A DNA stretch of 64,000 nt from a virus: UHGV virus genome UHGV-2031204. One strand, written 5' to 3'. Positions 5,001 through 21,605 of the stretch are shown here, one piece after another (position 1 is the first letter of the stretch; every line of letters starts with the position of its first letter). Below the pieces are notes generated by a model. The model did not search any database and had not been told where the DNA came from. It saw only the letters and a list, made by a program, of their open reading frames with translations. The translations under genes were made by a program, and so were the position numbers.

Positions 5001-6294
5001 ACGAAGCCGGAGTTGCAGCAACCCCAGTCGTTTCTGTACCTTTACCTGTTTTAAGTTTAGCGACGCCTTTTTCGGCGGTTGTCGCTTTTGTTGGGTCGAT
5101 AGTCCCCACGATAGGGTCGGCGCGAGAACCTTTACCGGTAAAGCTAATCCCATTACGGCCTTCAATGTACACCTTCGAGTCATCAGGGTCGCCACCGCCA
5201 CCAGAACCCGCATCTGGATCTTGTTGGTATTCCATCAATGTCGTGGTAGTCAGTAACGGGTTACCGTTCAGGGTGAGTTTGTTCATCCCTAAAGCATCGC
5301 CTGTTGACTCGATGCGTAATGTGTTTTTACCGGCACGCCAATTAATGTAACGTCCTGCACCTGTGCCTTCCAGATGTCCTACCGCTAATACCACAGAACC
5401 GTTGGATTTTAACGTAAAACCATCGTTGGCAAAAATGATTTCTGACTCACCGTTTTTCGAACGGAACTGTGCGCGGTTTCCTGACACCGTACAGTTAAAC
5501 ACGCCCCGTACTTCCGAAGAAATCCAGTGAGAGATATACGTGTCGATAACCGACTGCGGTAAACGAAACGCTTTCAGCTCATCCGTCAGTGCTTTCAACT
5601 TTAACCCGTACGCCATAAAGGTGTCGGGGGTTTTCAAGTTAACAGGATGCGCGTTAATCTGCGCGGATGTGGTTTCGTGCGGGTTCTTCGCTGCGATGTG
5701 TGCCGGGTAGTTAAATGCTTCGATTTCTTTACCCAACGCAGTCACTAACGCTTTAACTTCAGCTAATTTGTCTTTAATTAACTGGTTAGCGTCGTCGGTT
5801 TTCAATTCAATATCGTGAACTGCCGACGCTAAATATTTTTTGTTCAGCAAATCCGCCCAGGACGTTGCTGCTGGCGTCGCTGGATATAACGATGGTCTAC
5901 CGTCTAATAACAACCAGTCAGCACTGACTGGGTTATTCAAATATTTCACCAGTTCATCAAGAATATCAACGAACGGGTCGTAGAACGTACCACCGAGCAT
6001 TTGTCCTTCAAAGGTTACGATGCCTTTGATGGATGGGTTGATAAGGTGTACCCCACAATACACGTTGGCTGCTACCGAGTCATCCAGTTCCGTCAGCTGA
6101 TATTGCAGTTCGTAGTCCACCCCACGACTCAGTGGGGTGGTTGAACCTGGTTGTCTGACGACCAAATCTTCAAAGAACGGGCGGTGGTCTAAAATCACCA
6201 CCCGATCGTTGTTGTTCTCTGACCCGATGATACGCTCCTCTAAGAAGTGATTCTCGGCTTTCGTCCCCCGAGGATCGTAAGGATACGCTTTCAT
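2092..6294 (-). CDS. tail fiber protein (~1400 aa)
   Basis: Long ORF in track (2092..6297); likely ATG at 6294 with AAGGAG RBS 9 nt upstream; Gly-rich linkers (SGGGGDPDD), AATPASL fiber motif, beta-rich Thr/Ser/Gly/Asn composition. Confidence 0.7.
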   Translation of the reverse strand: MKAYPYDPRGTKAENHFLEERIIGSENNNDRVVILDHRPFFEDLVVRQPGSTTPLSRGVDYELQYQLTELDDSVAANVYCGVHLINPSIKGIVTFEGQMLGGTFYDPFVDILDELVKYLNNPVSADWLLLDGRPSLYPATPAATSWADLLNKKYLASAVHDIELKTDDANQLIKDKLAEVKALVTALGKEIEAFNYPAHIAAKNPHETTSAQINAHPVNLKTPDTFMAYGLKLKALTDELKAFRLPQSVIDTYISHWISSEVRGVFNCTVSGNRAQFRSKNGESEIIFANDGFTLKSNGSVVLAVGHLEGTGAGRYINWRAGKNTLRIESTGDALGMNKLTLNGNPLLTTTTLMEYQQDPDAGSGGGGDPDDSKVYIEGRNGISFTGKGSRADPIVGTIDPTKATTAEKGVAKLKTGKGTETTGVAATPASLAPYSTDLSGYVAKTTMINGKPMNDGSRTITKADLGLGQADNTADVDKPLSTELNAALSGLADAGHHHDWSELGIYKASQSVYGIGRYATNQNGLVENRAVVPNILKELSARLDVVAAAIANAKEGSVTDFAAVKGADWRFNSQGTAISVQDLKYFYLLNGAKADSAVTGSIDLQTTPMFNWFSPNNQIETTWPTGKVSAGKGISWTGIEEPPLMGFQSVPVGKTASQMGDQSVVTVLAKTRVRARQPKLWVYAAGGGPVTVYINGIQAATGQSPLVAVYETSADVENYTVAVKAECSDTAKSAAVQFEIYDGDYPVYFSGPETHVELLQEFVTTHVGIRHYLYVNMLTGSLYSRTEPIQSIAVDPERGYIGYVDIVAGESYSNKTVSFETTFDFGKSTEVSEHIDTRKAHGLSSVDWALTDNPRLPLLNRAIPEPRALIYRKTLGSGSGGTLCTLSRGLFSYSHGLNVKSDLELIFSTEGATPYCWFTPFNPKENNAPTFEGSFVFDVDDIGGTKALSAAPDLILCASSQGGTVGRRYVRINLTSKTCKVGVGAGSTSEVWHKSFELNNGSMLMDAGRETSVEVTTKDVLFNGEVANAEILDLIGWGANGDKISANHAPRGMIRYRYNVNTRVLRLALSFSQFGSTTINLRQIEMTLPFDLVDYFTGDGVGLAFNGLSEKCFLTINHALIDPKTGNIDIDKYHYLRSLFESYTDSSVGWLADSKDGDYYQKLIDPTTHVYELNYCPTETIALPTGQGSVAISHEGQLPAQFFPRKLSRGALMAKKGELHASWNNEWSTSKVAANRYRHKLILRFAQGADKQQYRVAKVTGTVKCNWPGKVIIGDAGKDAYVSAIDSVPFALSTNADTGKAVTLTPKDQRVGQDIYIVLEPPGNNPEGYELNFTCSLDVTDENGVRQDQLNAQSFELRSGESQFLMEKRNPYHITSKAWKWILAVLKRELNGKQLGDRT

Positions 6295-12011: not shown

Positions 12012-12221
12012 TTAGTCTTTTTTGTAGACAATTGCGTTACCGTGCAGTTTGTTGTTGCCGGAAATACCGATAACTTTGAATGCGTCGCCGCCAATTTTTT
12101 CAGCTTCAGCAGCCAGCTTACCCGTTACATGATCAACGGTGTCGCCGAAAGCGCTAACGTTACCGATTTTCTTAAACTCTTCTGGAATATGCTCAGCAGA
12201 AGAGAACTCTTTAATAGACAT
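12012..12221 (-). CDS. small hypothetical protein (69 aa, Gly/Ala/Lys-rich)
   Basis: Track ORF 12012..12239; internal ATG at 12221 has GGAGAG RBS; terminator downstream, GC hairpin upstream. Confidence 0.5.
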   Translation of the reverse strand: MSIKEFSSAEHIPEEFKKIGNVSAFGDTVDHVTGKLAAEAEKIGGDAFKVIGISGNNKLHGNAIVYKKD

Positions 12222-12427
12222 AACAGCTCTCCATTTCAAAAGGAAGGTGGTCTAAGACCGACGTGTGTTACAACCGAAGCATAAGATAGCTCCTCCCCGT
12301 AGGGAGGAGTAGAGTGCGCGAAAAAAGTGGCCTGCTTAACTAAACGATGGGTTTAAGAAAAGTGTTGATAAAAAGCTTTACCAACGTCAGGTCACAATAT
12401 ATAAACACAACGTAAGAAAAAGGGGAA

Positions 12428-13393
12428 TTATTGCGGAGGTGATGTCGGACCATGTTTACCTTGGTGAATGTGAACGCTAAAGGTAATACCGGAAATAATG
12501 GCATCTTTAACCGTAAAGACACCCACGCCTTCACCCGTACCACCGTATTTGAAGTTCTTAGCGACTTCCAGATTACCGGTGAACATCGCTTCCTTCCCTT
12601 CTTGTTTAAAGTTCGGCGTTTTGAACGTTGTCGAACTGCCCGCTTCTGTTAACCAGGTTTGTGTTTTAAACGTAACGGAATTCGCTGCTTCCGTATTGCG
12701 GACTTCACATTTTTCATTAATCGTTTTCGTTTCCAGGTTAATAGAACGCTTTGAATAAATGAACGCATCTTCTTTGTTGATGTTCACTTTTGAAAGCATC
12801 GCATTCTCAAACCCGAGATCATCTTCAACCGAGTTAATGTAATACTTGTTTCCTTTATGGTCAACGCACTGCCACGTACCGTTTGCATTATCAAACTGAA
12901 ACAACCACGCCGCTTTCTCGCCATTCACCATACTCGTTCTTAGCGTGATATGTTTGTCAATCGTCGAAACGTTCAACACATACGCATTGGACAAGTCATC
13001 CGCCATTTGGTTTTCAGGGTCAGCCGACCACGCATAAACCGCATCTTCTAATCGCTTAACGTTAGCGAAGTTCAGATCAATCCAAAAATAAATATCGGTT
13101 TTCCCCAAACGTAACAAGATAACGTAGTCTTCTCGTTTAACGTCAGGGGAATTAATTCGGTTGGAGTTAAACTTCCACCACTTTGCTGTTATCGTGTTAC
13201 CCGTCTTAATGGTTAGGTTATCTGTTGCACCAGACGTTTCATGCGTCTTTTCAGTTGCTGAAGAAACAGATTGTACCACGGTAGGGTTAGCAAAGTTAGT
13301 TTCAATTGGTATCACTTTTACCCGATCTGTACCACGGGGTTTGTCTTCCGCGACGATACCAATTGAGAAAAAATCAACACTGGATTTCTCCAT
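12428..13393 (-). CDS. hypothetical protein (321 aa), possibly virion-associated
   Basis: Track ORF; beta-rich Thr/Asn/Lys composition; no motif recognised. Confidence 0.5.
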   Translation of the reverse strand: MEKSSVDFFSIGIVAEDKPRGTDRVKVIPIETNFANPTVVQSVSSATEKTHETSGATDNLTIKTGNTITAKWWKFNSNRINSPDVKREDYVILLRLGKTDIYFWIDLNFANVKRLEDAVYAWSADPENQMADDLSNAYVLNVSTIDKHITLRTSMVNGEKAAWLFQFDNANGTWQCVDHKGNKYYINSVEDDLGFENAMLSKVNINKEDAFIYSKRSINLETKTINEKCEVRNTEAANSVTFKTQTWLTEAGSSTTFKTPNFKQEGKEAMFTGNLEVAKNFKYGGTGEGVGVFTVKDAIISGITFSVHIHQGKHGPTSPPQ

Positions 13394-13421
13394 CGGGACG
13401 TTCCTTAGATCGGAATTGATT

Positions 13422-13447
13422 TCAGATATATTTTACTTAAGTGAATA
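13422..13447 (+). promoter_or_regulatory. candidate phage promoter motif (copy 1 of CAGATATAT[T/A]TTACTTAAGTGA)
   Basis: Near-identical to motif at 17706-17731; followed by a 9-bp-stem hairpin (13448-13473); sits in a 320-bp ORF-free region upstream of the first plus-block gene. Confidence 0.4.
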
Positions 13448-13580
13448 GGGACTGAAGTACCAGTTCAGTCCCTACGGACACGTTACCCTTTTAGTACCTT
13501 TCGTTAAAGGTTACTAAAAAATTACATTATGTCCCTTTATTCTGCTACTCGGGATACCGGTAGGGGATAGGGGGCATTAT

Positions 13581-13619
13581 GTATACGGATATAAATAGCG
13601 GAGGTATACGGAGTATACC
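13581..13619. promoter_or_regulatory. candidate operator: GTATACGGA direct repeat plus GGTATAC-GGA-GTATACC palindrome
   Basis: Direct repeats at 13581-13589 and 13605-13613; perfect 7-bp inverted repeat at 13603-13619; ~100 bp upstream of 13715. Confidence 0.3.
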
Positions 13620-13714
13620 GACATACTCTTCCCAGAGGAACGTAGTGACTTCCTTATACCTCTTTTACAATCCATAATAATAGCCTTCCCTTCATTGGGA
13701 TTAGCGAGTAAATC

Positions 13715-14449
13715 ATGAAAGAATTATTAGACGATATCTTTACCAATACCAGTTTAGAACTTTCTTCTACGGTGGTTAACGAACTAATAAAACAATCGCA
13801 ACCTGCTAAGTTAGGCGCTGCCAGGGTAGTTAACCCTAAAGATTATCTAGGCTGCGATATCATAGGTGGTACGATCGATGAGTACGCAATTGGTATTTAC
13901 CCCAACTGGGTCTTCTTTGTTCTTAATACCGAAACCGGTGTCATGTTAACCTACACGATGAGTAGTGATGCCGAACACGAAGTTGTAGCGGAACATATTC
14001 GCCACATCGCCAGCACGCCTATCTTTTCCGACGTTACGTTTATTGGGGGAAGCACTATGCTGACGTTATTCTCTTACTTCCCACTGTTTAGACATGGGGT
14101 AGGGTTAATCAAGCATGTAGAAAACCTTCCCGATAACGTAGAGTTATCACTGCTTGGCCCCGGCATCGATCTTTATCCATTAAAAGATAACGGTAAGTTA
14201 TACGGTTTACGTATCTATGTTTCTTGGTTAAAGGGATACCGCGTTATTGAACTGATTGCATCAGACTTAACAAAACAGATCCCAGAAGTAGAAACGATTT
14301 CTAAAGCCACCCACCTGGTTGAGATTAACCCAGACGATCCGTTTTTACAGTACCACAAAGAAATTGCCCTTCGTGGTATCGCGGCCGTAAAAGGGTGGGG
14401 CTGTGCTGAGATTACGAAGGGCTATCTGCTTCTAATTAAAACCGCGTAA
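13715..14449 (+). CDS. hypothetical protein, tandem paralog family member 1 (244 aa)
   Basis: Track ORF; N-terminus MKELLDDIF matches MKVHLDDIF of 16282 ORF; C-terminus KGWG..EI.KGYLLLI resembles GW..V..G.QLLF tail of neighbours. Confidence 0.6.
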   Translation: MKELLDDIFTNTSLELSSTVVNELIKQSQPAKLGAARVVNPKDYLGCDIIGGTIDEYAIGIYPNWVFFVLNTETGVMLTYTMSSDAEHEVVAEHIRHIASTPIFSDVTFIGGSTMLTLFSYFPLFRHGVGLIKHVENLPDNVELSLLGPGIDLYPLKDNGKLYGLRIYVSWLKGYRVIELIASDLTKQIPEVETISKATHLVEINPDDPFLQYHKEIALRGIAAVKGWGCAEITKGYLLLIKTA

Positions 14450-14478
14450 TTAAGAAAACCGAAAAAGGAGAATATACC

Positions 14479-15033
14479 ATGTTTCAAACTGAACTGAAAA
14501 ATGAAATTATCCAAACCCTTGAAAAGGGCGTAGGCGAACATTTCTTTGTCCGTCCTTATACCGTACTGACCAATACCATTATTCAGCCAGGTGCGATGAT
14601 AGTAGGGGTGAGTGTACAAGCTGTGGAGGAAACCCCACTGCGTCGCAACATCACACGTAAAACCCATATCCCGTTTAGAACAGGTTTTACAGATTACTTT
14701 CAGAGCTTACTGAAAGATAGCGTTTGGAAAACAGGTAGCTTCTTCCACGAAGGGAAGACTTCCACGCTGGTTTATAAAGAGAACACCAAGTATCTGGTCG
14801 ATTTTCTCTTAGCGCGTCAGTATGCTTTCTTTCCAACCCCTACTGACTGCACCACAGACAACCCAGGTAAGTTATTAAACCAAAGCGAAGCCGAGGCACT
14901 CTTTACAAGACTTCGGAATGAGCAGTGCGATGTTGACGACTGGGAAACATTGATCGCGGTCGCTAAAGCCCACGGTTGGTATACCGTACGTAAACTCGGT
15001 CAGCAGTTGTTGTTCTTAGCTTACCCTGCTTAA
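14479..15033 (+). CDS. hypothetical protein, tandem paralog family member 2 (184 aa)
   Basis: Track ORF with AAGGAG RBS; C-terminal block YAFFPTPTD...EAEALFTRL...HGWYTVRKLGQQLLFLA shared with 15063 and 16282 ORFs. Confidence 0.65.
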   Translation: MFQTELKNEIIQTLEKGVGEHFFVRPYTVLTNTIIQPGAMIVGVSVQAVEETPLRRNITRKTHIPFRTGFTDYFQSLLKDSVWKTGSFFHEGKTSTLVYKENTKYLVDFLLARQYAFFPTPTDCTTDNPGKLLNQSEAEALFTRLRNEQCDVDDWETLIAVAKAHGWYTVRKLGQQLLFLAYPA

Positions 15034-15062
15034 GTAACGAAAAAACCTAAAGGAGAGTAAAA

Positions 15063-16214
15063 ATGCGAAATATTATTTCTAAACCAGGACATGTCAAAAT
15101 CCTAAAAGAACTGATGGACAGATGCTATAATCGGACTTGGTCACTACCAAGCTTAACCATCGAGTCTTCATTACAACGTGAGTTGTTTGGTTATAACTTG
15201 GGCTGTTGTGTACTTACTGAATACAATGAGATTATCGCGCCTGTCGATGTCTGTACTTACGATGAAGAAATTGAAGGTTACAAGTTCGCGGTTTACACAA
15301 ATTGTGGACTAAATTACCGTAAACTCGTTGTTAGGGAAAAGAGTAGCAGCCGGAAGATTATGTTTAAGGTCTTCCCAAGTGGTAAAGTCAGTAATTTATG
15401 TTTTCAGCTTGAGAAAGTGCCCTTTCACGGTGCGGACATTTTAACTAAACCGGAGCTCGCGTTATTAAGCGGGTTAATTGGCTTTGAAGCAAAAACCATC
15501 AAAGTTGAGCAGGAACTTACACGAAACGATTTCGGGTCAACTTGGTACGAAAGTTTCTTCCGCTACGAAATGTTAAGTGATAAAGCTATCAAACTCACTT
15601 ACCGTTCTACCGACGACATCGTTTACCACATTTTAATTAGCGGCGAACCCCACCAGATTATTGAAGTCGAAGGAGAAAAATCCGTGCGTACCTTAAAAGA
15701 TGAATTAACTGATTTTGTTAACAAAATTGATAACGTGGGTATCAGTGAATTATTATTCCCGATTCAACATCCAGAGTTGCTTGACGAGAAATGTGAAAAC
15801 ATGATTATGGCGGTGCATTTACTTCCTGACCATCTTGCTATCTACCGTACACTTTCTAAGAACCAACTTAAAGTGTGGTGTCTGTTAAAAGGTCTTTTAA
15901 CAGAGGCGGGGTGGTCGTGTAGTGTAGATGTTAACTGTGAAGGAGTTGCGTTCTTCATCACAATAGGCAATCGTAGTTTTTCTGTCGATTTACCTACTCG
16001 CAGCTATTACGATTTCTTCCCGACCGCAGAAGGACGTACTGAAAAAGAACCCGCATTACTGCTCAGTGCTGAGGAGTCCAATGCGTTAATGGCGAAACTG
16101 AAGGCGAAAGACGAGAAGCTGGATGCTTTACATCTACCTATAATCGGGAAAGACTACGGTTGGGCTGACGTGCAAAAATACGGCAGTCAGCTGTTGTTTG
16201 TTGCTGACCTCTAA
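15063..16214 (+). CDS. hypothetical protein, tandem paralog family member 3 (383 aa)
   Basis: Track ORF with AAAGGAGAG RBS; C-terminal YDFFPTAEG...SNALMAKL...YGWADVQKYGSQLLFVA. Confidence 0.65.
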   Translation: MRNIISKPGHVKILKELMDRCYNRTWSLPSLTIESSLQRELFGYNLGCCVLTEYNEIIAPVDVCTYDEEIEGYKFAVYTNCGLNYRKLVVREKSSSRKIMFKVFPSGKVSNLCFQLEKVPFHGADILTKPELALLSGLIGFEAKTIKVEQELTRNDFGSTWYESFFRYEMLSDKAIKLTYRSTDDIVYHILISGEPHQIIEVEGEKSVRTLKDELTDFVNKIDNVGISELLFPIQHPELLDEKCENMIMAVHLLPDHLAIYRTLSKNQLKVWCLLKGLLTEAGWSCSVDVNCEGVAFFITIGNRSFSVDLPTRSYYDFFPTAEGRTEKEPALLLSAEESNALMAKLKAKDEKLDALHLPIIGKDYGWADVQKYGSQLLFVADL

Positions 16215-16240
16215 TAAGTGAAAATACACTTTCTCTAACT

Positions 16241-16267
16241 GCCGCGCTTTAGTCGCGGCTTTTGTTA
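16241..16267 (+). terminator. intrinsic terminator
   Basis: Stem GCCGCG/CGCGGC then TTTTGTT. Confidence 0.5.
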
Positions 16268-16281
16268 AGAAGGAAATAGAA

Positions 16282-17055
16282 ATGAAAGTCCATTTAGACG
16301 ACATCTTTAAAACCGAACCGTATATGATCGAAGGCCCGCTATCATCACTACTATTTGCCGATAGATTAGATCGTACGCTGCAATTACAATCGGTCGAAAC
16401 TGCACCCGTTGACGATGTAGAGCGTTACGAGCGCATCAACTATACGCGTGGTGAGTATCGTCGCTATAAGCCAAATTCACTAAGCATCAAGCTTTGGAAT
16501 GTGAGCACAGGTAAAGTATTAACTTATCGCGCTGTTGGTAGTTATTACATTCAACAAGCCAAAGAGTGGTTAGAAAAAGTTAAAGAACTGAACTTCGATC
16601 TACTGAGCAAAAAACTGCGCGATCATAACGCCAGTTTGCCGATACGTAATTATTTCTCCACGATTGAAAATAGTCGTTGTTTCGTTTCACGTGAAACCAC
16701 GATATTACCTGGGGATGATGTTCAGACAACACTAAAAGATGTGGTTGTGAAGAAAATCTTTCATGAATCTGAACACGTTGGATTTCGTATCTATTTAACG
16801 CATAAGAGACCATTTACCGTGATTCACGTTGTTACCGCACCCGAAGGCTCAGCGATTATTCGTGAACTTCCTGATGCTCGAGACCGTTGCCCTAATGAGC
16901 CGCTTTATTTAATGTCAGGAACAAAATCAACCGCGTTGATGTCCCGTTACAGCATGTTAGATGTTGTTGACGCTGCTATGAAACTAGGTTGGAAAGAAGT
17001 GCAGCAACATGGTAAACAATTGCTGTTTATTGCCGATGTAAAACTTAATCAATAG
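16282..17055 (+). CDS. hypothetical protein, tandem paralog family member 4 (257 aa)
   Basis: Track ORF; C-terminal STALMSRY...KLGWKEVQQHGKQLLFIA; N-terminal MKVHLDDIF. Confidence 0.65.
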   Translation: MKVHLDDIFKTEPYMIEGPLSSLLFADRLDRTLQLQSVETAPVDDVERYERINYTRGEYRRYKPNSLSIKLWNVSTGKVLTYRAVGSYYIQQAKEWLEKVKELNFDLLSKKLRDHNASLPIRNYFSTIENSRCFVSRETTILPGDDVQTTLKDVVVKKIFHESEHVGFRIYLTHKRPFTVIHVVTAPEGSAIIRELPDARDRCPNEPLYLMSGTKSTALMSRYSMLDVVDAAMKLGWKEVQQHGKQLLFIADVKLNQ

Positions 17056-17067
17056 TGAGGTGGTACC

Positions 17068-17646
17068 GTGTACCGATTAATAGAAATGCGAAAAGACGTT
17101 TGGTTGGAAAACCTCGTCGATGGGGAGCTTGAGGGAATAGAGCTTTCCTTACCAGAAAGAGCGGACACGGTATTGGTCTTTCTGATAAAACAGGCAGCGA
17201 AGGAACCGGTAGGAATCTTCAGCGTGGACTATAAAGACCCACGAGGGATTCATTTACGGAACATTTGCAGTGGTTTAGAAAGCTTACCGGCTAATCCGTT
17301 CTTAAACTACGCAAAACGTAAACTCCAGCCAGGGCAACATCTCTGGGTAGTTCTAGCGCCTGATACACGCATTATACGTGACGACCAGACTGCGTTTGTC
17401 CAAGCAACGAAAGTCAGTTTGTACAATCCTAATGCGGATCGTACCGATATGCCGTTTACAATCACCTTAGAAGACGATGGAACGCAAGAGGGTATTGAGG
17501 CAATTACGGAATTAGTAAACTCTTATCCGGTAGCATCTATTGAGTTAGAAAACCCAAACCGATTACCGTTGGGTGATTTACTCGAATGGATTGAGCTGAA
17601 TACCGAGTTCCTCATTAACTCCCGGCAGTACCGGTTCGATGTATAA
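17068..17646 (+). CDS. hypothetical protein (192 aa)
   Basis: Track ORF, GTG start with GAGGTGG RBS; followed by strong terminator. Confidence 0.55.
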   Translation: MYRLIEMRKDVWLENLVDGELEGIELSLPERADTVLVFLIKQAAKEPVGIFSVDYKDPRGIHLRNICSGLESLPANPFLNYAKRKLQPGQHLWVVLAPDTRIIRDDQTAFVQATKVSLYNPNADRTDMPFTITLEDDGTQEGIEAITELVNSYPVASIELENPNRLPLGDLLEWIELNTEFLINSRQYRFDV

Positions 17647-17650
17647 CATC

Positions 17651-17683
17651 GGTGGGGGTAAACCCCCACCTTTTATTTTTTTG
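17651..17683 (+). terminator. intrinsic terminator
   Basis: Stem GGTGGGGG/CCCCCACC followed by TTTTATTTTTTTG. Confidence 0.7.
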
Positions 17684-17705
17684 TTCGTTAATATTAAAAA
17701 TAATT

Positions 17706-17731
17706 TCAGATATATATTACTTAAGTGAGAG
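17706..17731 (+). promoter_or_regulatory. candidate phage promoter motif (copy 2; contains TATATTAC)
   Basis: CAGATATATATTACTTAAGTGAGAG matches 13422-13447; directly after a terminator and ~45 bp upstream of 17777; overlaps hairpin TTAAGTGAG...CTCACTTAA. Confidence 0.45.
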
Positions 17732-17776
17732 TACAAAAGCACTCACTTAACGAAAACCATTTTAGGAGAACTAAAG

Positions 17777-18148
17777 ATGAAAAACGAATTATTCAAAGAC
17801 CCGTTTGTTGTATTAATGATCGTTACTCGCGCTGCCACTAACCCAGAAAACCTGAAACGTTTACTTACTAACGAAGCATACCTTATCGAACAGCGTGACG
17901 CGCAGTTAGCCAAACCACACGCTGAAGGCCAGGCGAAAGACCTTATCTCTATTTTCCGTAACGAAGAATGGCGTAAAAACAACGAGCTGTCCGACAACCT
18001 GACGGTTGCAATTGCAAAACTCTTGACACTGTTCAATCTTGACAAAGACATTAACCAAAGCCTTTCTACAGAAGAGCGTCTGGAAATGATAAGAGGTATC
18101 GGAGATAGTTATACACAGATTAAAGCATTACCCAACACAGTTATTTAA
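17777..18148 (+). CDS. hypothetical protein (123 aa)
   Basis: Track ORF with AGGAGAA RBS. Confidence 0.55.
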   Translation: MKNELFKDPFVVLMIVTRAATNPENLKRLLTNEAYLIEQRDAQLAKPHAEGQAKDLISIFRNEEWRKNNELSDNLTVAIAKLLTLFNLDKDINQSLSTEERLEMIRGIGDSYTQIKALPNTVI

Positions 18149-18194
18149 TTTCATAATTTGTGGGAACTTCCCCATAACCCGAAGGAGCATTTCA

Positions 18195-18656
18195 ATGAAA
18201 ACCTTTATCACTTTCTTAATAACTATTTTAACTTTCGGCCTCAATACTGCACACGCCGCTATCAACAGCTGGGAACAAATACAAAACCCTGGCCAGGCAG
18301 TTTACGAAATTGAAGACACCGCCGGAAACGGACTGTCTATCAACTGTGACACTGAAACTGCGAATCGCAAATTTTACGGTCGCATGGTTTGGTATTACGG
18401 GGAACCCGTAGGTGCAACTAACGCTGAAGATAACACGATGGATATTGTCGTAAACGGCAAGACCTATAACATCCCTACCGTGGACGGTAGTGACAAAGCA
18501 GAACACGCTTGGGTTGCTTTCGTTAATGCTATCGGTAATGCCAAAACTTTCAGTGTGAGTATCAATGGTAACGATGCCGCTAACTTTACCGTAGAAGGCG
18601 AACGTCTGTCTGAAACTTTCTTCCAGAACTGTGGACACACCCGTCCTAACAAATAA
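18195..18656 (+). CDS. small secreted protein 1 (153 aa, predicted signal peptide)
   Basis: AAGGAG RBS; N-terminus MKTFITFLITILTFGLNTAHA is a classic Sec signal with AxA site; mature part has 2 Cys. Confidence 0.6.
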   Translation: MKTFITFLITILTFGLNTAHAAINSWEQIQNPGQAVYEIEDTAGNGLSINCDTETANRKFYGRMVWYYGEPVGATNAEDNTMDIVVNGKTYNIPTVDGSDKAEHAWVAFVNAIGNAKTFSVSINGNDAANFTVEGERLSETFFQNCGHTRPNK

Positions 18657-18684
18657 GTATTAATCTTTTTTAGAGTGCGTGAAA

Positions 18685-19071
18685 ATGAATATCAGAACTA
18701 TACTTTATACTATCATTATTTTCTGTGCGGTCGGAATTACTGGCACTTATGCTTTCGGTGATTCAGATGTCCGTTATTACGAACCGGCTCCTGACTCACC
18801 GATTATCAACCCGGATGAGACGCCTACGTTAATGCGCAGTTTCGGTAAACTGCAAGTTTATCGTTTAGTGCGTGGTGAAACCTGTACGGGTTTACTCATT
18901 GCTGACACCCGTGCACAAGTCTACCAACGTCTAACCGATATCGCCTGCGAACAACCAAAAGTAATGTCAGTTAGTATCCATCCGCTATCAGTTGGTAACT
19001 ATACCGCTGTGGACTTCTTTCACAACGCCGAATTAATCGGACGCGTTACCTTAAATCGTCCTGCCGAATAA
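18685..19071 (+). CDS. small secreted protein 2 (~128 aa, predicted signal peptide)
   Basis: Track ORF from GTG 18679; ATG at 18685; hydrophobic N-terminus IRTILYTIIIFCAVGITGTYA; Cys in mature part. Confidence 0.5.
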   Translation: MNIRTILYTIIIFCAVGITGTYAFGDSDVRYYEPAPDSPIINPDETPTLMRSFGKLQVYRLVRGETCTGLLIADTRAQVYQRLTDIACEQPKVMSVSIHPLSVGNYTAVDFFHNAELIGRVTLNRPAE

Positions 19072-19089
19072 TCTAAAGGAGTAGTTACA

Positions 19090-19575
19090 ATGAAACGTTT
19101 ACATACACTGATGTTCTTTCTGGTTTTCTTGTTTATCGGTGCCACGCCAACTGTAGATGCGGCCTCCGTAGACGAATTGCTTACCTGCGATGGAAACGCT
19201 TGGGAAGGTCAGCCAAATGCGTGCCCAAACATCAACGACTTGTACGATACCGATAAGTCGTTTAAAGCCGTTGTTGATAAAACACTAGACCCCGTAGGGC
19301 TGGATGGTATGTTCGGCTCTAAAGGTTACATGGATGGCCCTGGCGGTAACATGTATCCGGTAAACATCAACAACAAAATCTGGATTGAAAGCGGCGGTTG
19401 TAAAGCTAACGCTTGTGGTTGGGAATACATCGTAACGCTATACAACCCACACACTAAGAAACTCGTCGGCTATTACTACAACATCGACCCCGGTTACCTG
19501 ATTTGGTTCGGTGATATCGGTGTTGCCGAATTCGCTTACCTGGTTAAGAAATACGTAGAACAATCTAAATACTAA
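19090..19575 (+). CDS. small secreted protein 3 (161 aa, Cys-rich, predicted signal peptide)
   Basis: AAGGAG RBS; MKRLHTLMFFLVFLFIGATPTVDA signal; several Cys in mature part. Confidence 0.6.
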   Translation: MKRLHTLMFFLVFLFIGATPTVDAASVDELLTCDGNAWEGQPNACPNINDLYDTDKSFKAVVDKTLDPVGLDGMFGSKGYMDGPGGNMYPVNINNKIWIESGGCKANACGWEYIVTLYNPHTKKLVGYYYNIDPGYLIWFGDIGVAEFAYLVKKYVEQSKY

Positions 19576-19586
19576 GGACTTTTATC

Positions 19587-19997
19587 ATGAAAACTATCAT
19601 TAATACTCTTCTCATTGCAATGGCTGTTCTGTTCTCTGTCAACGCTACAGCAAAAACAATACAGTTGCCAGACAATATTAAGTACGTCAATAGCACCGAT
19701 GATTTCTATTGTACGGAAATTGACGGCTTGTACTGTCAGGCAAAGAGCCTGTTTAAATACAAAGGTAGCAGATACGTATTCATCGTTGAGCAAGGTGGTG
19801 CCTGGTGCTACGACAGCCCAATGTCCGTACTCAACCTCGAAACGTGGAAGGCTCAGCGTCTCGAATACAACGACAAACGTCTGTGCTCTGGTAATAACAA
19901 ACCATTCTTCGAAGTCGTAGATGGTGTGCCAATGGTAGGGATATTAGACACTTCGGAAAAACCTATCGTTGTAGCTATGGATAAACTTAAAATTTAA
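19587..19997 (+). CDS. small secreted protein 4 (136 aa, predicted signal peptide)
   Basis: MKTIINTLLIAMAVLFSVNATA signal; Cys pairs in mature part. Confidence 0.55.
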   Translation: MKTIINTLLIAMAVLFSVNATAKTIQLPDNIKYVNSTDDFYCTEIDGLYCQAKSLFKYKGSRYVFIVEQGGAWCYDSPMSVLNLETWKAQRLEYNDKRLCSGNNKPFFEVVDGVPMVGILDTSEKPIVVAMDKLKI

Positions 19998-20007
19998 GGA
20001 GTAACTC

Positions 20008-20397
20008 ATGCGTCTCGTCTGCGTTTTAGCATTCTTCTTCTCCCTGAGTGTAGCAGCATCTACCCAAGTTAACGATTTACTGCTAACCCCAAACAACAAT
20101 ACCGATTATCAGTACAATCCTCCGGGGTTTGAAGTTTGCGAAGTCGGTGAAACAATCTGCCAAGAAGTCGGCGCAGACGGGCGCTATATTCTGGTAAAAG
20201 CTGACGGTGGCACAATGTGTCCCGCAGGTTATTACTTTCTGCTCGATTCCGTCGCAAGAGAGGTTCTTCCTATCACCACGAAAACGTGCGACCCTACCGT
20301 TGTCTTAACTCTCGCTAAAAGTAAATCTCGCGACCGTTATCTGATCGTTATCGAAGAACGGGGCAAGATGGCGGGTGCTATTGAATTAGATCATTGA
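20008..20397 (+). CDS. small secreted protein 5 (129 aa, predicted signal peptide)
   Basis: AAGGAG RBS; MRLVCVLAFFFSLSVAAS signal; 5 Cys in mature part. Confidence 0.55.
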   Translation: MRLVCVLAFFFSLSVAASTQVNDLLLTPNNNTDYQYNPPGFEVCEVGETICQEVGADGRYILVKADGGTMCPAGYYFLLDSVAREVLPITTKTCDPTVVLTLAKSKSRDRYLIVIEERGKMAGAIELDH

Positions 20398-20407
20398 GTG
20401 TAGTCTT

Positions 20408-20436
20408 GACCCCGGTACGTCCGGGGTCCTTTTTAC
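20408..20436 (+). terminator. intrinsic terminator
   Basis: Stem GACCCCGG/CCGGGGTC followed by CTTTTTAC. Confidence 0.6.
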
Positions 20437-20463
20437 GACATGTTTACCTAAAGGAGTATTAAA

Positions 20464-20940
20464 ATGCAATTATCTAACGTTTACCAAGCTGCGCAATTTC
20501 ATCATGACCTGTCGGCTAAACCTGAACAAATTCGCCACAACTTAACGGTGGCCTGGAAACTGCTACGTATCGCCGAAGCCTCGCGCCTTAACGATCAGTC
20601 GACGATTATCGAAACGGTGCGCACACTACATCCAGTCGACCTGGAAACAATCTGGACCTTTGATTTAACCCGAATTTATCACCGTCGTTTTAATGCGGCA
20701 GTTGATGCAATCCGTCCTTACTTTCACCACCTGCGAACAACACGCGAAAATGATACCGCACTTGAGTGGGTGTTGGTACAAAGCGTATGGAGCGACTACA
20801 TTTATCTCCTTTCTTTAGAGACGGGTGAATGTATCGTTGCTAACGAAGTTTTTTCAAGTAACGCAGAAATGTATCGTTCCTACGCGACGATTAAAGGTGA
20901 AACACAACCTATTTTATCACTCACGCACTTAGGGCTGTAA
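20464..20940 (+). CDS. hypothetical protein (158 aa)
   Basis: Track ORF with AAAGGAG RBS; terminator after stop. Confidence 0.55.
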   Translation: MQLSNVYQAAQFHHDLSAKPEQIRHNLTVAWKLLRIAEASRLNDQSTIIETVRTLHPVDLETIWTFDLTRIYHRRFNAAVDAIRPYFHHLRTTRENDTALEWVLVQSVWSDYIYLLSLETGECIVANEVFSSNAEMYRSYATIKGETQPILSLTHLGL

Positions 20941-20948
20941 TTAGCCCG

Positions 20949-20977
20949 GCCCCGTTTACTCGGGGCTTCTTTTTTTG
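20949..20977 (+). terminator. intrinsic terminator
   Basis: Stem GCCCCG/CGGGGC followed by TTCTTTTTTTG. Confidence 0.6.
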
Positions 20978-20996
20978 ATCTAAAAGGAAAGACCAG

Positions 20997-21605
20997 ATGA
21001 ACGAAATTACATTAGTTCGTTTTCTTGAAGCGATGCAAAATGCAGAGCGCTTTTCGCACGCGCCTTTATTCATTGACTTAATGGAAGAAGAAGTAGAGGG
21101 CTTCCTGGCATACCCTCGCTTACGGGAGTATTTTAAACGTAAAACACCGACTGCTTACGAAAAGTTGGTTTACGCGCTTGAGAACAGTACAACATTGTTA
21201 ACGTCGCCTTTTAAGGCGTTGGAGGCTTTAGACCCGGCTGGTACCACAAGTATCCCACAACGTGTTGTGTTCTACTATATCGACCACGATCGAATTAAAG
21301 CCGATGTTGTTAACTGGATCTCTGAAAACGCAGTTCCTGAAACACGCACTTTTAATCTCTGTCCTGTAGAAGAAGGATGGAAGGTCGGTAGCCACTATTC
21401 TTACCCGTACCAATCCATTAAATCGCCGTTTTTATACCCGGTTTATCTGGATGATGTTACACCTGGAAATTGTATCCCGGTAACAAATCTGATCTGTACA
21501 TTGACGATGGAAGTCTTAGCCACAAAGGCGGGACAGGTTTGGGTAGAAAACACGAAGAACGTCGATTATTGGACTTCAATGGGTTATCACCTGTACACCA
21601 AATAA
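20997..21605 (+). CDS. hypothetical protein (202 aa)
   Basis: Track ORF with AAAGGAAAG RBS; terminator after stop. Confidence 0.55.
   Translation: MNEITLVRFLEAMQNAERFSHAPLFIDLMEEEVEGFLAYPRLREYFKRKTPTAYEKLVYALENSTTLLTSPFKALEALDPAGTTSIPQRVVFYYIDHDRIKADVVNWISENAVPETRTFNLCPVEEGWKVGSHYSYPYQSIKSPFLYPVYLDDVTPGNCIPVTNLICTLTMEVLATKAGQVWVENTKNVDYWTSMGYHLYTK

Follow-up and report, generated by a model that had tools for sequence, protein, structure and literature searches.

Genes A to D and their genomic context

The 64,000-nucleotide (nt) stretch of the virus genome UHGV-2031204 analyzed here (hereinafter, the window) contains four consecutive plus-strand open reading frames (ORFs), denoted A to D, which an initial annotation made from the sequence alone described as a tandem family of paralogs with a common C-terminal module and variable bodies, suggestive of a role in host interaction or anti-defense. 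All four ORFs were confirmed at positions 13715 to 17055, with lengths of 244, 184, 383, and 257 amino acids (aa). These genes represent a lineage-specific tandem expansion of an accessory gene family of jumbo phages that resides in a fixed, hypervariable slot, which at least five genera of SPN3US-like phages have in common. Together with the gene that follows them, they are arranged as follows:

13715-14449, plus strand: gene A, 244 aa; module remnant at aa 218-241 (nt 14366-14437)
14479-15033, plus strand: gene B, 184 aa; module at approximately aa 112-184 (nt 14812-15030)
15063-16214, plus strand: gene C, 383 aa; unique 312-aa body and module at aa 313-383 (nt 15999-16211)
16282-17055, plus strand: gene D, 257 aa; module at approximately aa 190-257 (nt 16849-17052)
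17068-17646, plus strand: gene E, 192 aa; matches PHROG 20879 (E = 3e-33); not a family member, in the same predicted A-E unit

Shine-Dalgarno sites precede each of the genes B, C, D, and E, and gene A has a weak one. Gene E is the ortholog of SPN3US gp177 and Asesino gp197 (BLASTP E = 1e-19 to 1e-22). Of the flanking proteins, one of 420 aa shows 77-80% identity to SPN3US gp171 and Asesino gp191, and another, of 321 aa, is a baseplate protein; the gene order in the window is that of SPN3US and Asesino. Genes A-D head a replication and nucleotide-metabolism block, which encodes, downstream and on the same strand, SbcC-like, RNase H, UvsX-like, and thymidylate synthase proteins; the structural genes are on the opposite strand. 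To judge by its sequence, the window belongs to an undescribed SPN3US/Asesino-like jumbo phage of roughly 225 kb. Megablast found zero matches to the window among 50,697 deposited phage records, and a tblastn search of deposited phages with the gene C protein (383 aa) retrieved nothing. Relatives of protein D at 72-95% identity sit on contigs of ~225 kb from assemblies labeled Salmonella enterica, Shigella flexneri, and E. coli and from many metagenomes, and one protein D variant is listed in 132 blocks of the searched collection. Given the absence of a deposited match at the DNA level and the near-identical contigs of ~225 kb, this lineage appears to be uncultured or undeposited and yet widespread. 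Phages of the lineage (the relatives L003-L005, L013, and L015-L018) might have been carried along with enterobacterial isolates.

The C-terminal module of B, C, and D

The similarity between B and C (BLASTP E = 9e-9 over 108 aa, confined to the C-terminal ~108 aa of C) and between C and D (E = 6e-7 over 65 aa) is readily detectable, and that between B and D is weak (E = 0.07). Comparison of profiles built from orthologs (hhalign) links all three pairs, with P = 1e-12 for B-C, 3e-10 for C-D, and 1e-5 for B-D. The window was also scanned with a hidden Markov model (HMM) for which the training set comprised only unrelated stand-alone proteins encoded by other phages; the hits were B, C, and D (E = 1e-10 to 1e-15) and nothing else. 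Each of the three proteins has all the invariant columns of the module (P, P, L, G, W, V, G, Q, L, F). The C-terminal similarity is statistically solid for B, C, and D, in which the module spans ~70 aa and is significant by BLASTP, HMM, and hhalign, whereas the attribution of a complete module to all four genes does not hold for A, where only the last 24 residues correspond.

These observations bear on the scenario under which the four ORFs are fragments of a single ancestral gene, resulting from pseudogenization or from a sequencing or annotation artifact. The alignment of B to the C-terminal part of C and the single 412-aa gene that fills the equivalent position in SPN3US are compatible with fragmentation, but B, C, and D each contain a complete module and have clear ribosome-binding sites (the one of A is weak), the same gene order and sizes are found in nine genomes, and all four genes are under purifying selection. 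With the ORFs intact in all nine genomes and the ratio of nonsynonymous to synonymous substitution rates (dN/dS) below 1, we consider fragmentation refuted.

Gene A, a diverged paralog of D

Gene A shows no pairwise match to the module and no match to the module HMM. At the profile level, aa 218-241 of this protein (ALRGIAAVKGWGCAEITKGYLLLI) align to the second helix and the hairpin of the module (hhalign P = 3e-5), with the N-terminal PD..DR..N.P arm lost and the GW and LLLI motifs kept. The profiles of A and D align end to end over 241 columns with a probability of 80-88% (P = 3e-6 with four orthologs, and 1e-5 with eight and six orthologs), and the bodies alone align over 181 columns (P = 2e-4). 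The N-terminus that had been noticed as common to two of the genes belongs to this same pair, with seven of the first nine residues identical (MKELLDDIF in A, MKVHLDDIF in D). Given the end-to-end profile alignment and the common N-terminal residues, gene A is probably a full-length, strongly diverged, and partly degenerate paralog of D; it is intact in the nine genomes, at 44-100% identity.

A module family of jumbo phages

A search of 1.84 billion representative proteins with the module profile retrieved 95 clusters at E<=1e-3, of which ~90 are true members; five giant repetitive proteins (P0069, P0086, and others), which an independent HMM misses, were rejected as false positives. The family consists of ~47 stand-alone proteins (72-152 aa), ~37 C-terminal fusions, and 8 N-terminal fusions (a tblastn search with one of the latter, P0083, found nothing). 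The stand-alone proteins show that the module functions without a fused body. Its signature can be written as [FLI]PDxxDR[TS]xN[DNE]PxxL[LM]S - helix - loop - helix - GWxxVxxxGxQLL[FL], where the polar residues (D, R, N, Q) are conserved over the ~90 clusters and the variable loop between the helices accommodates insertions of up to ~40 aa. Every module-bearing contig that is long enough to judge comes from a jumbo phage (218-307 kb), and the phages that carry the module are jumbo phages of Enterobacterales and Shewanella.

The module was found in PHROGs 26772, 33648, 24489, and 18480, all labeled "unknown function", whose members include SPN3US gp175, Asesino gp195, EarlPhillipIV gp170, Phobos gp176, Machina gp185-187, and Caitlin gp184-185. 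C and D match the PHROG module profiles at E = 1e-5 to 1e-10, among them hits at 5e-7 to 9e-10, and phrog_18480 is also matched by 23 of the 45 stand-alone members. Searches of Pfam, NCBIfam, and PADLOC with A-D, the 45 stand-alone members, and 39 further fusions yielded only sub-threshold noise; profile searches against PDB sequences yielded nothing for the module; and BFVD contained only uncharacterized family members from Erwinia, Klebsiella, and Salmonella jumbo phages, several per phage. In the literature, we found no paper describing the module, the slot, the arrays, or SPN3US gp175. The module and the arrangement reported here are new; the members are already public as hypothetical proteins or as PHROGs of unknown function.

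The AlphaFold2 model of the module, built from a 26-sequence alignment, shows a predicted beta-alpha-alpha-beta-beta fold (predicted local distance difference test score, pLDDT, 94; predicted template modeling score, pTM, 0.79). No convincing structural neighbor of this model was found, nor was any clear likeness to solved winged-helix domains; given a confidently predicted fold without structural or sequence relatives, the module would be a new domain family. In the full-length AlphaFold2 model of gene D (mean pLDDT 65), the N-terminal domain and the module are modeled with moderate to good quality, and residues 115-190 with poor quality; this model, too, lacks a real structural neighbor. At a median isoelectric point (pI) of 6.1 and a median net charge of -1, the module is near-neutral to acidic, a property that is more in line with binding to proteins than to DNA. 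Acidic modules are found in B and C.

Without the module, the remaining parts of the fusion proteins form at least 23 groups of bodies that have no BLAST links to one another. The layout noticed in the window, a constant module attached to variable bodies, is real and extends to the whole family. Profile comparison of the bodies adds few links, namely the one between A and D and the weak ones between EarlPhillipIV and Phobos and between P0040 and P0042. The first 210 residues of gene C match nothing, and a comparison of the N-terminal half of C with the A/D-like body was not significant, so this candidate relationship was rejected.

A separate observation concerns a subfamily of stand-alone members (IPDV.ERT.NDP.YLMSS...) encoded directly downstream of phage tRNA genes at five loci (L006 5639-6669, L007 3915-6402, L137 3676-4420, L138 3495-4390, and L009). 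The genes for tRNA-Asn and for tRNA-Ser or tRNA-Leu are located upstream, and those for tRNA-Cys or tRNA-Trp downstream; in L009, the module gene lies among tRNA genes and has a SpoU-type methylase gene after it. Given that these loci probably form one syntenic clade, they amount to few independent cases. In L137, a Tad2-like gene (PF11195), of the anti-Thoeris family Tad2, lies 1.9 kb upstream of the stand-alone module gene. Across the module loci, no neighbor gene that travels with the module was found.

A fixed slot with changing occupants

The slot is occupied by the first rightward gene or genes after the divergently transcribed baseplate gene, or after a small gp174-like gene. It holds a module gene in 7 of the 7 deposited phages examined, which represent five genera, and in all 9 genomes of the window's clade, and the body encoded at the slot differs in each deposited relative examined. 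The named occupants are:

SPN3US gp175: in the slot, 412 aa, single module gene
Asesino gp195: in the slot, 223 aa, single module gene
EarlPhillipIV gp170: in the slot, 356 aa, single module gene
Phobos gp176: in the slot, 319 aa, single module gene
Machina gp185, gp186, and gp187: in the slot, in tandem, three module genes
Caitlin gp184 and gp185: in the slot, in tandem, two module genes

The copy number at the slot is therefore 1, 2, 3, or, in the clade of the window, 3 plus the degenerate A, with two or three copies in Machinavirus. Given the three copies in Machina and the two in Caitlin at the same slot, tandem arrays are not unique to the window, although its clade has the largest array seen (three complete modules and one degenerate copy). 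Within Machinavirus, the identity of the first slot gene ranges from 94% down to 30%. The deposited PHROG family and the genes of the window share the C-terminal module and the slot after the baseplate gene, and Machinavirus has tandem copies as well; the differences are that the deposited members have no body matching that of A, B, C, or D, that the array in the window is larger, and that it comes from a phage with no close deposited relative at the DNA level.

Given that A-D adjoin baseplate and tail structural genes, it could be proposed that their products are packaged in the virion and ejected, with the module as a handle that sends variable cargo into the capsid or the tail, in the manner of the ejection and inner-body families of phiKZ and SPN3US. 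Giant phages of this group do carry paralogous families of packaged proteins (PMC5694885). However, A-D are on the strand opposite to the structural genes and head a replication-type block; in those deposited genomes where the neighbors are labeled virion structural proteins, the module gene is labeled only hypothetical; SPN3US gp175 is not mentioned in the searchable text of the SPN3US virion papers; and a 72-aa stand-alone module would be a targeting tag without cargo. Packaging of these proteins thus appears highly improbable.

In SPN3US and Asesino, the baseplate gene and the module gene are separated by a gene of 105 aa (SPN3US gp174, Asesino gp194). In three relatives of the window (L003, at approximately 5130-5230, L004, and L005), an insertion of ~95 nt with a small ORF (MSTEKK...) is present, and the window is without it (13473 to ~13485). 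Given that SPN3US gp174 also starts with ATGTCT and is in the same position, this insertion may be a remnant of a gp174/gp194-type gene.

Variation among close relatives of the window

Nine genomes of the clade were compared (the window, L003-5, L013, and L015-18). All nine have the same four genes in the same order and of the same sizes, with all ORFs intact. The flanking structural genes are 90-100% identical at the amino acid level, and the corresponding ranges are 44-100% for A, 38-100% for B, 41-100% for C, and 74-100% for D. The closest relative of the window by gene A is L013 (90% identity), and the B genes of the same two genomes are only 48% identical; conversely, L003 and L004 have identical C and D and near-identical flanks but differ in A (47%) and B (42%). 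Diverged alleles of A-D are reassorted between otherwise near-identical phages.

Gene-wide dN/dS values, estimated by the Nei-Gojobori method for the nine genomes, in which recombination is evident, are 0.3-0.6 for A, 0.2-0.4 for C, 0.1-0.3 for B, and 0.1-0.2 for D, that is, 5-10 times the values for the flanking genes (0.01-0.08); within B, C, and D alike, the module is under stronger constraint than the body. The intact ORFs, dN/dS below 1, and the reassorted identities indicate that A-D are functional, fast-evolving genes whose old alleles are exchanged. A-D diverge far faster than their neighbors (38-100% identity, compared with 90-100% in the flanks), but the initial designation of the family as "diversifying" is a hypothesis, as gene-wide dN/dS of 0.1-0.6 does not demonstrate diversifying selection.

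The same data are the natural ground for an alternative under which A-D are dispensable, drifting ORFan cargo in a recombination-prone slot, the rapid divergence of which would reflect weak constraint rather than selection by the host, the module being simply a stable folding or oligomerization core that outlasts the decay of the rest. The raised dN/dS (albeit always below 1), the loss of half of the module in A, the change of copy number from 1 to 4 between genera, and the lack of a recognizable functional domain in any body are all compatible with drift. Nevertheless, all nine genomes have the four ORFs intact, including where identity is as low as 40-50%, a module gene fills the slot in every deposited phage examined and every genome of the clade, and the signature, including the polar D, R, N, and Q, is conserved in ~90 clusters. 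Furthermore, the diverged alleles are kept and reassorted rather than lost, which is more typical of balancing or frequency-dependent selection. We regard drift as unlikely, although it deserves serious attention.

The allelic classes extend downstream of the array (17068-21605), where gene E is either 73% or 89-100% identical between genomes and a 202-aa protein is 77-100% identical. A 123-aa gene (17777-18148) is present in the window and in L016-18; in L003, L004, and L013, a second gene with a YfjT domain (PF27224) takes its place.

Promoter-like motif and conserved leader element

The promoter-like motif reported upstream of the array is real: the window contains two copies of a 24-mer, TTCAGATATAT(T/A)TTACTTAAGTGA, with 0 expected by chance. 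The non-coding features of the region are:

13421-13444, plus strand: promoter-like 24-mer, copy 1 (TTCAGATATATTTTACTTAAGTGA), ~270 nt upstream of gene A
13449-13473, plus strand: hairpin GGGACTGAAGTACCAGTTCAGTCCC, directly after copy 1 of the 24-mer
13563-13627, plus strand: conserved non-coding leader element, consisting of a G-box (GGGGATAGGGGG), CGGAGG, the hairpin GGTATAC-GGA-GTATACC, and CCGACATACT
16241-16265, plus strand: terminator-like hairpin GCCGCGCTTTAGTCGCGGC followed by TTTTGT, between C and D, from a consensus scan only
17651-17680, plus strand: strong terminator-like hairpin GGTGGGGGTAAACCCCCACC with a T-run, closing the predicted A-E unit
17705-17728, plus strand: promoter-like 24-mer, copy 2, opening the next predicted unit

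In shortened form, the motif reads CAGATATAT(A/T)TTAC. Its 16-nt core, TTCAGATATATWTTAC, occurs at least four times, always on the plus strand, in the contig taken as phiEaH2 (IMG/VR 2595698952_000001, 243,050 bp) and twice each in several other contigs of 220-246 kb, and related motifs closely precede the module gene in EarlPhillipIV, Phobos, Asesino, and SPN3US. In jumbo phages with their own RNA polymerases, early promoters contain an AT-rich conserved motif of ~10 nt near position -10 (PMC7598289). We infer that the 24-mer is an early-type promoter and that A-E would form one transcription unit, from this motif to the terminator after E; the 16-mer core is probably the early-promoter consensus of this phage group, and no earlier description of it as such was found. 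A scan for sigma-70 promoters produced no sites above chance. The hairpin inside the unit, at 16241-16265, may be an attenuator.

Both copies of the 24-mer are followed by an inverted repeat, and in the relatives of the window the stem at 13449-13473 is kept by compensatory changes (GGGGCTGAA..TTCAGCCCC). The leader element, with the consensus GGGG(N2-4)GGGGG, a spacer, CGGAGG, a hairpin, and CCGACAYCCTT, lies within a block (~13517-13660) that is nearly invariant in the nine genomes, although the adjacent gene A is diverged. At the same intergenic position, the element is found in SPN3US, Asesino, Machina, and Caitlin and, in a reduced form, in EarlPhillipIV and Phobos (L002 11742-11808, L001 11756-11806, L019 ~5790-5860, L020 ~5821-5900, L011 6920-6961, and L012 7058-7099). 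The stem of its hairpin covaries by genus (TATAC/GTATA in the window, TATCC/GGATA in SPN3US, TGAC/GTCA in Asesino, and TAGC/GCTA in Machina), and the loop is variable as well (GGA, GTA, or TAC). An Rfam search of 13300-17800 gave one sub-threshold hit and no match for the element. The element might act as a leader RNA, as a promoter or operator, or as an anchor for recombination. A tie between the leader hairpin element and the module was considered and rejected because the element is absent at the stand-alone module loci.

The hairpin with covarying arms is also pertinent to the idea that the module is a nucleic-acid binder of a winged-helix-, R3H-, or KH-like type, such that the family would consist of multi-copy regulators with shuffled partners, comparable to Bro-N and KilA-N proteins or to anti-CRISPRs joined to an Aca-type repressor, and perhaps acting on their own leader hairpin. 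The predicted beta-alpha-alpha-beta-beta fold would equal a winged helix minus the first helix, the palindromic hairpin precedes the first module gene in several genera, and in one clade stand-alone members are encoded among tRNA genes. The properties of the module itself point in the opposite direction: it is near-neutral to acidic, the sequences at the would-be recognition helix (VVDAAMKLGW, LPIIGKDYGW) are of hydrophobic or acidic character, insertions of up to ~40 aa occur in the "turn" between the helices, and none of the helix-turn-helix (HTH) or winged-helix Pfam models matches it. Moreover, the leader element is absent at the stand-alone genes and is reduced in EarlPhillipIV and Phobos despite the presence of the module. 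A regulatory, nucleic-acid-binding role accordingly seems decidedly unlikely.

A proposed docking module with variable effector bodies

The explanation that we favor, tentatively and with a probability of approximately 45%, is that the products of the A-D family combine a docking module with variable effector bodies. The module would be an autonomous unit of protein-protein docking or self-association that supplies the constant function, conceivably a contact with a conserved phage or host partner. The bodies would be the specificity parts, binding changing host targets involved in defense or takeover, and would be replaced through rapid divergence and allele exchange among co-circulating phages. 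Gene A, with half of the module lost, may be escaping the module arrangement. In this sense, a role in host interaction or anti-defense, as initially proposed, is plausible, and the function assigned to the family is one that we infer; the Tad2-like neighbor in a single distant locus (L137) is a weak pointer to a link with defense.

Several points weigh against this explanation. The dN/dS of A-D never reaches 1, and similar rates would be expected of dispensable genes under relaxed constraint. Early expression of A-D is suggested by a sequence motif only, and the ~270 nt between the motif and A contain a hairpin and a conserved element. The bodies match no known domain or host-takeover family, and neither the bodies nor the module match a known toxin or host-interaction family, in Pfam, NCBIfam, or PADLOC, of which PADLOC covers defense systems and not anti-defense proteins; likewise, no likeness to anti-defense proteins was found in Pfam, NCBIfam, PHROGs, PDB, or BFVD, no dedicated anti-defense library having been searched.

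A more specific and speculative proposal, to which we assign a rather low probability, is that the module is a portable address tag of SPN3US-like, nucleus-forming jumbo phages that would bring interchangeable effector bodies to one conserved hub. On the phage side, this hub might be the early infection vesicle, the nuclear shell, or the virion RNA polymerase; alternatively, it might be a conserved machine of the host. The slot would then be a site of cassette exchange for host-range or counter-defense effectors, and the leader element a regulatory or recombination anchor.

Comparison with known systems and implications

Hypervariable accessory slots and constant-domain families are already known kinds of arrangement in phages and large viruses. 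Iyer, Koonin, and Aravind are said to have described, in 2002, Bro-N and KilA-N as small constant domains with shuffled partners in large DNA viruses. By analogy, the module is a small conserved domain that is either stand-alone or fused at either end to many unrelated regions, is present in several copies per genome, and is found in variable parts of large viral genomes. The difference is that the present family has no match to the Bro-N and KilA-N Pfam models at the gathering level (among A-D, the 45 stand-alone members, and the 39 fusions), has a different predicted fold, and shows no sign of DNA binding.

Anti-CRISPR loci are marked by a conserved aca gene, and in AcrIIA1 a regulatory domain is fused to an inhibitor domain. 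The slot described here resembles aca-type loci in that a conserved marker accompanies rapidly replaced proteins, in the fixed position behind a phage promoter (here, a promoter-like motif), and in the exchange of alleles. Unlike such loci, the module family has no detected HTH domain and no known inhibitor family, and its link to defense is circumstantial.

Most jumbo-phage genes lack a known function, and principled criteria for choosing those that act on the host are scarce. The module is a small, easily recognized marker of a hypervariable slot in at least five genera, with more than 20 unrelated bodies, and the A-D family is a good lead for host-interaction genes. Should the bodies prove to be counter-defense or takeover effectors, the module could serve as a marker in searches for such genes, in the way that aca genes serve for anti-CRISPRs. 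The natural allele swaps between near-identical phages provide ready-made experiments on host range and evasion of defense.

A minor observation concerns a minus-strand gene (12012-12239; 69-75 aa) located between two structural genes of the window. Its orthologs in the relatives contain a YdgH/BhsA-like domain (PF07338), which belongs to a family of bacterial periplasmic stress proteins and is unusual for a tail and baseplate gene cluster.

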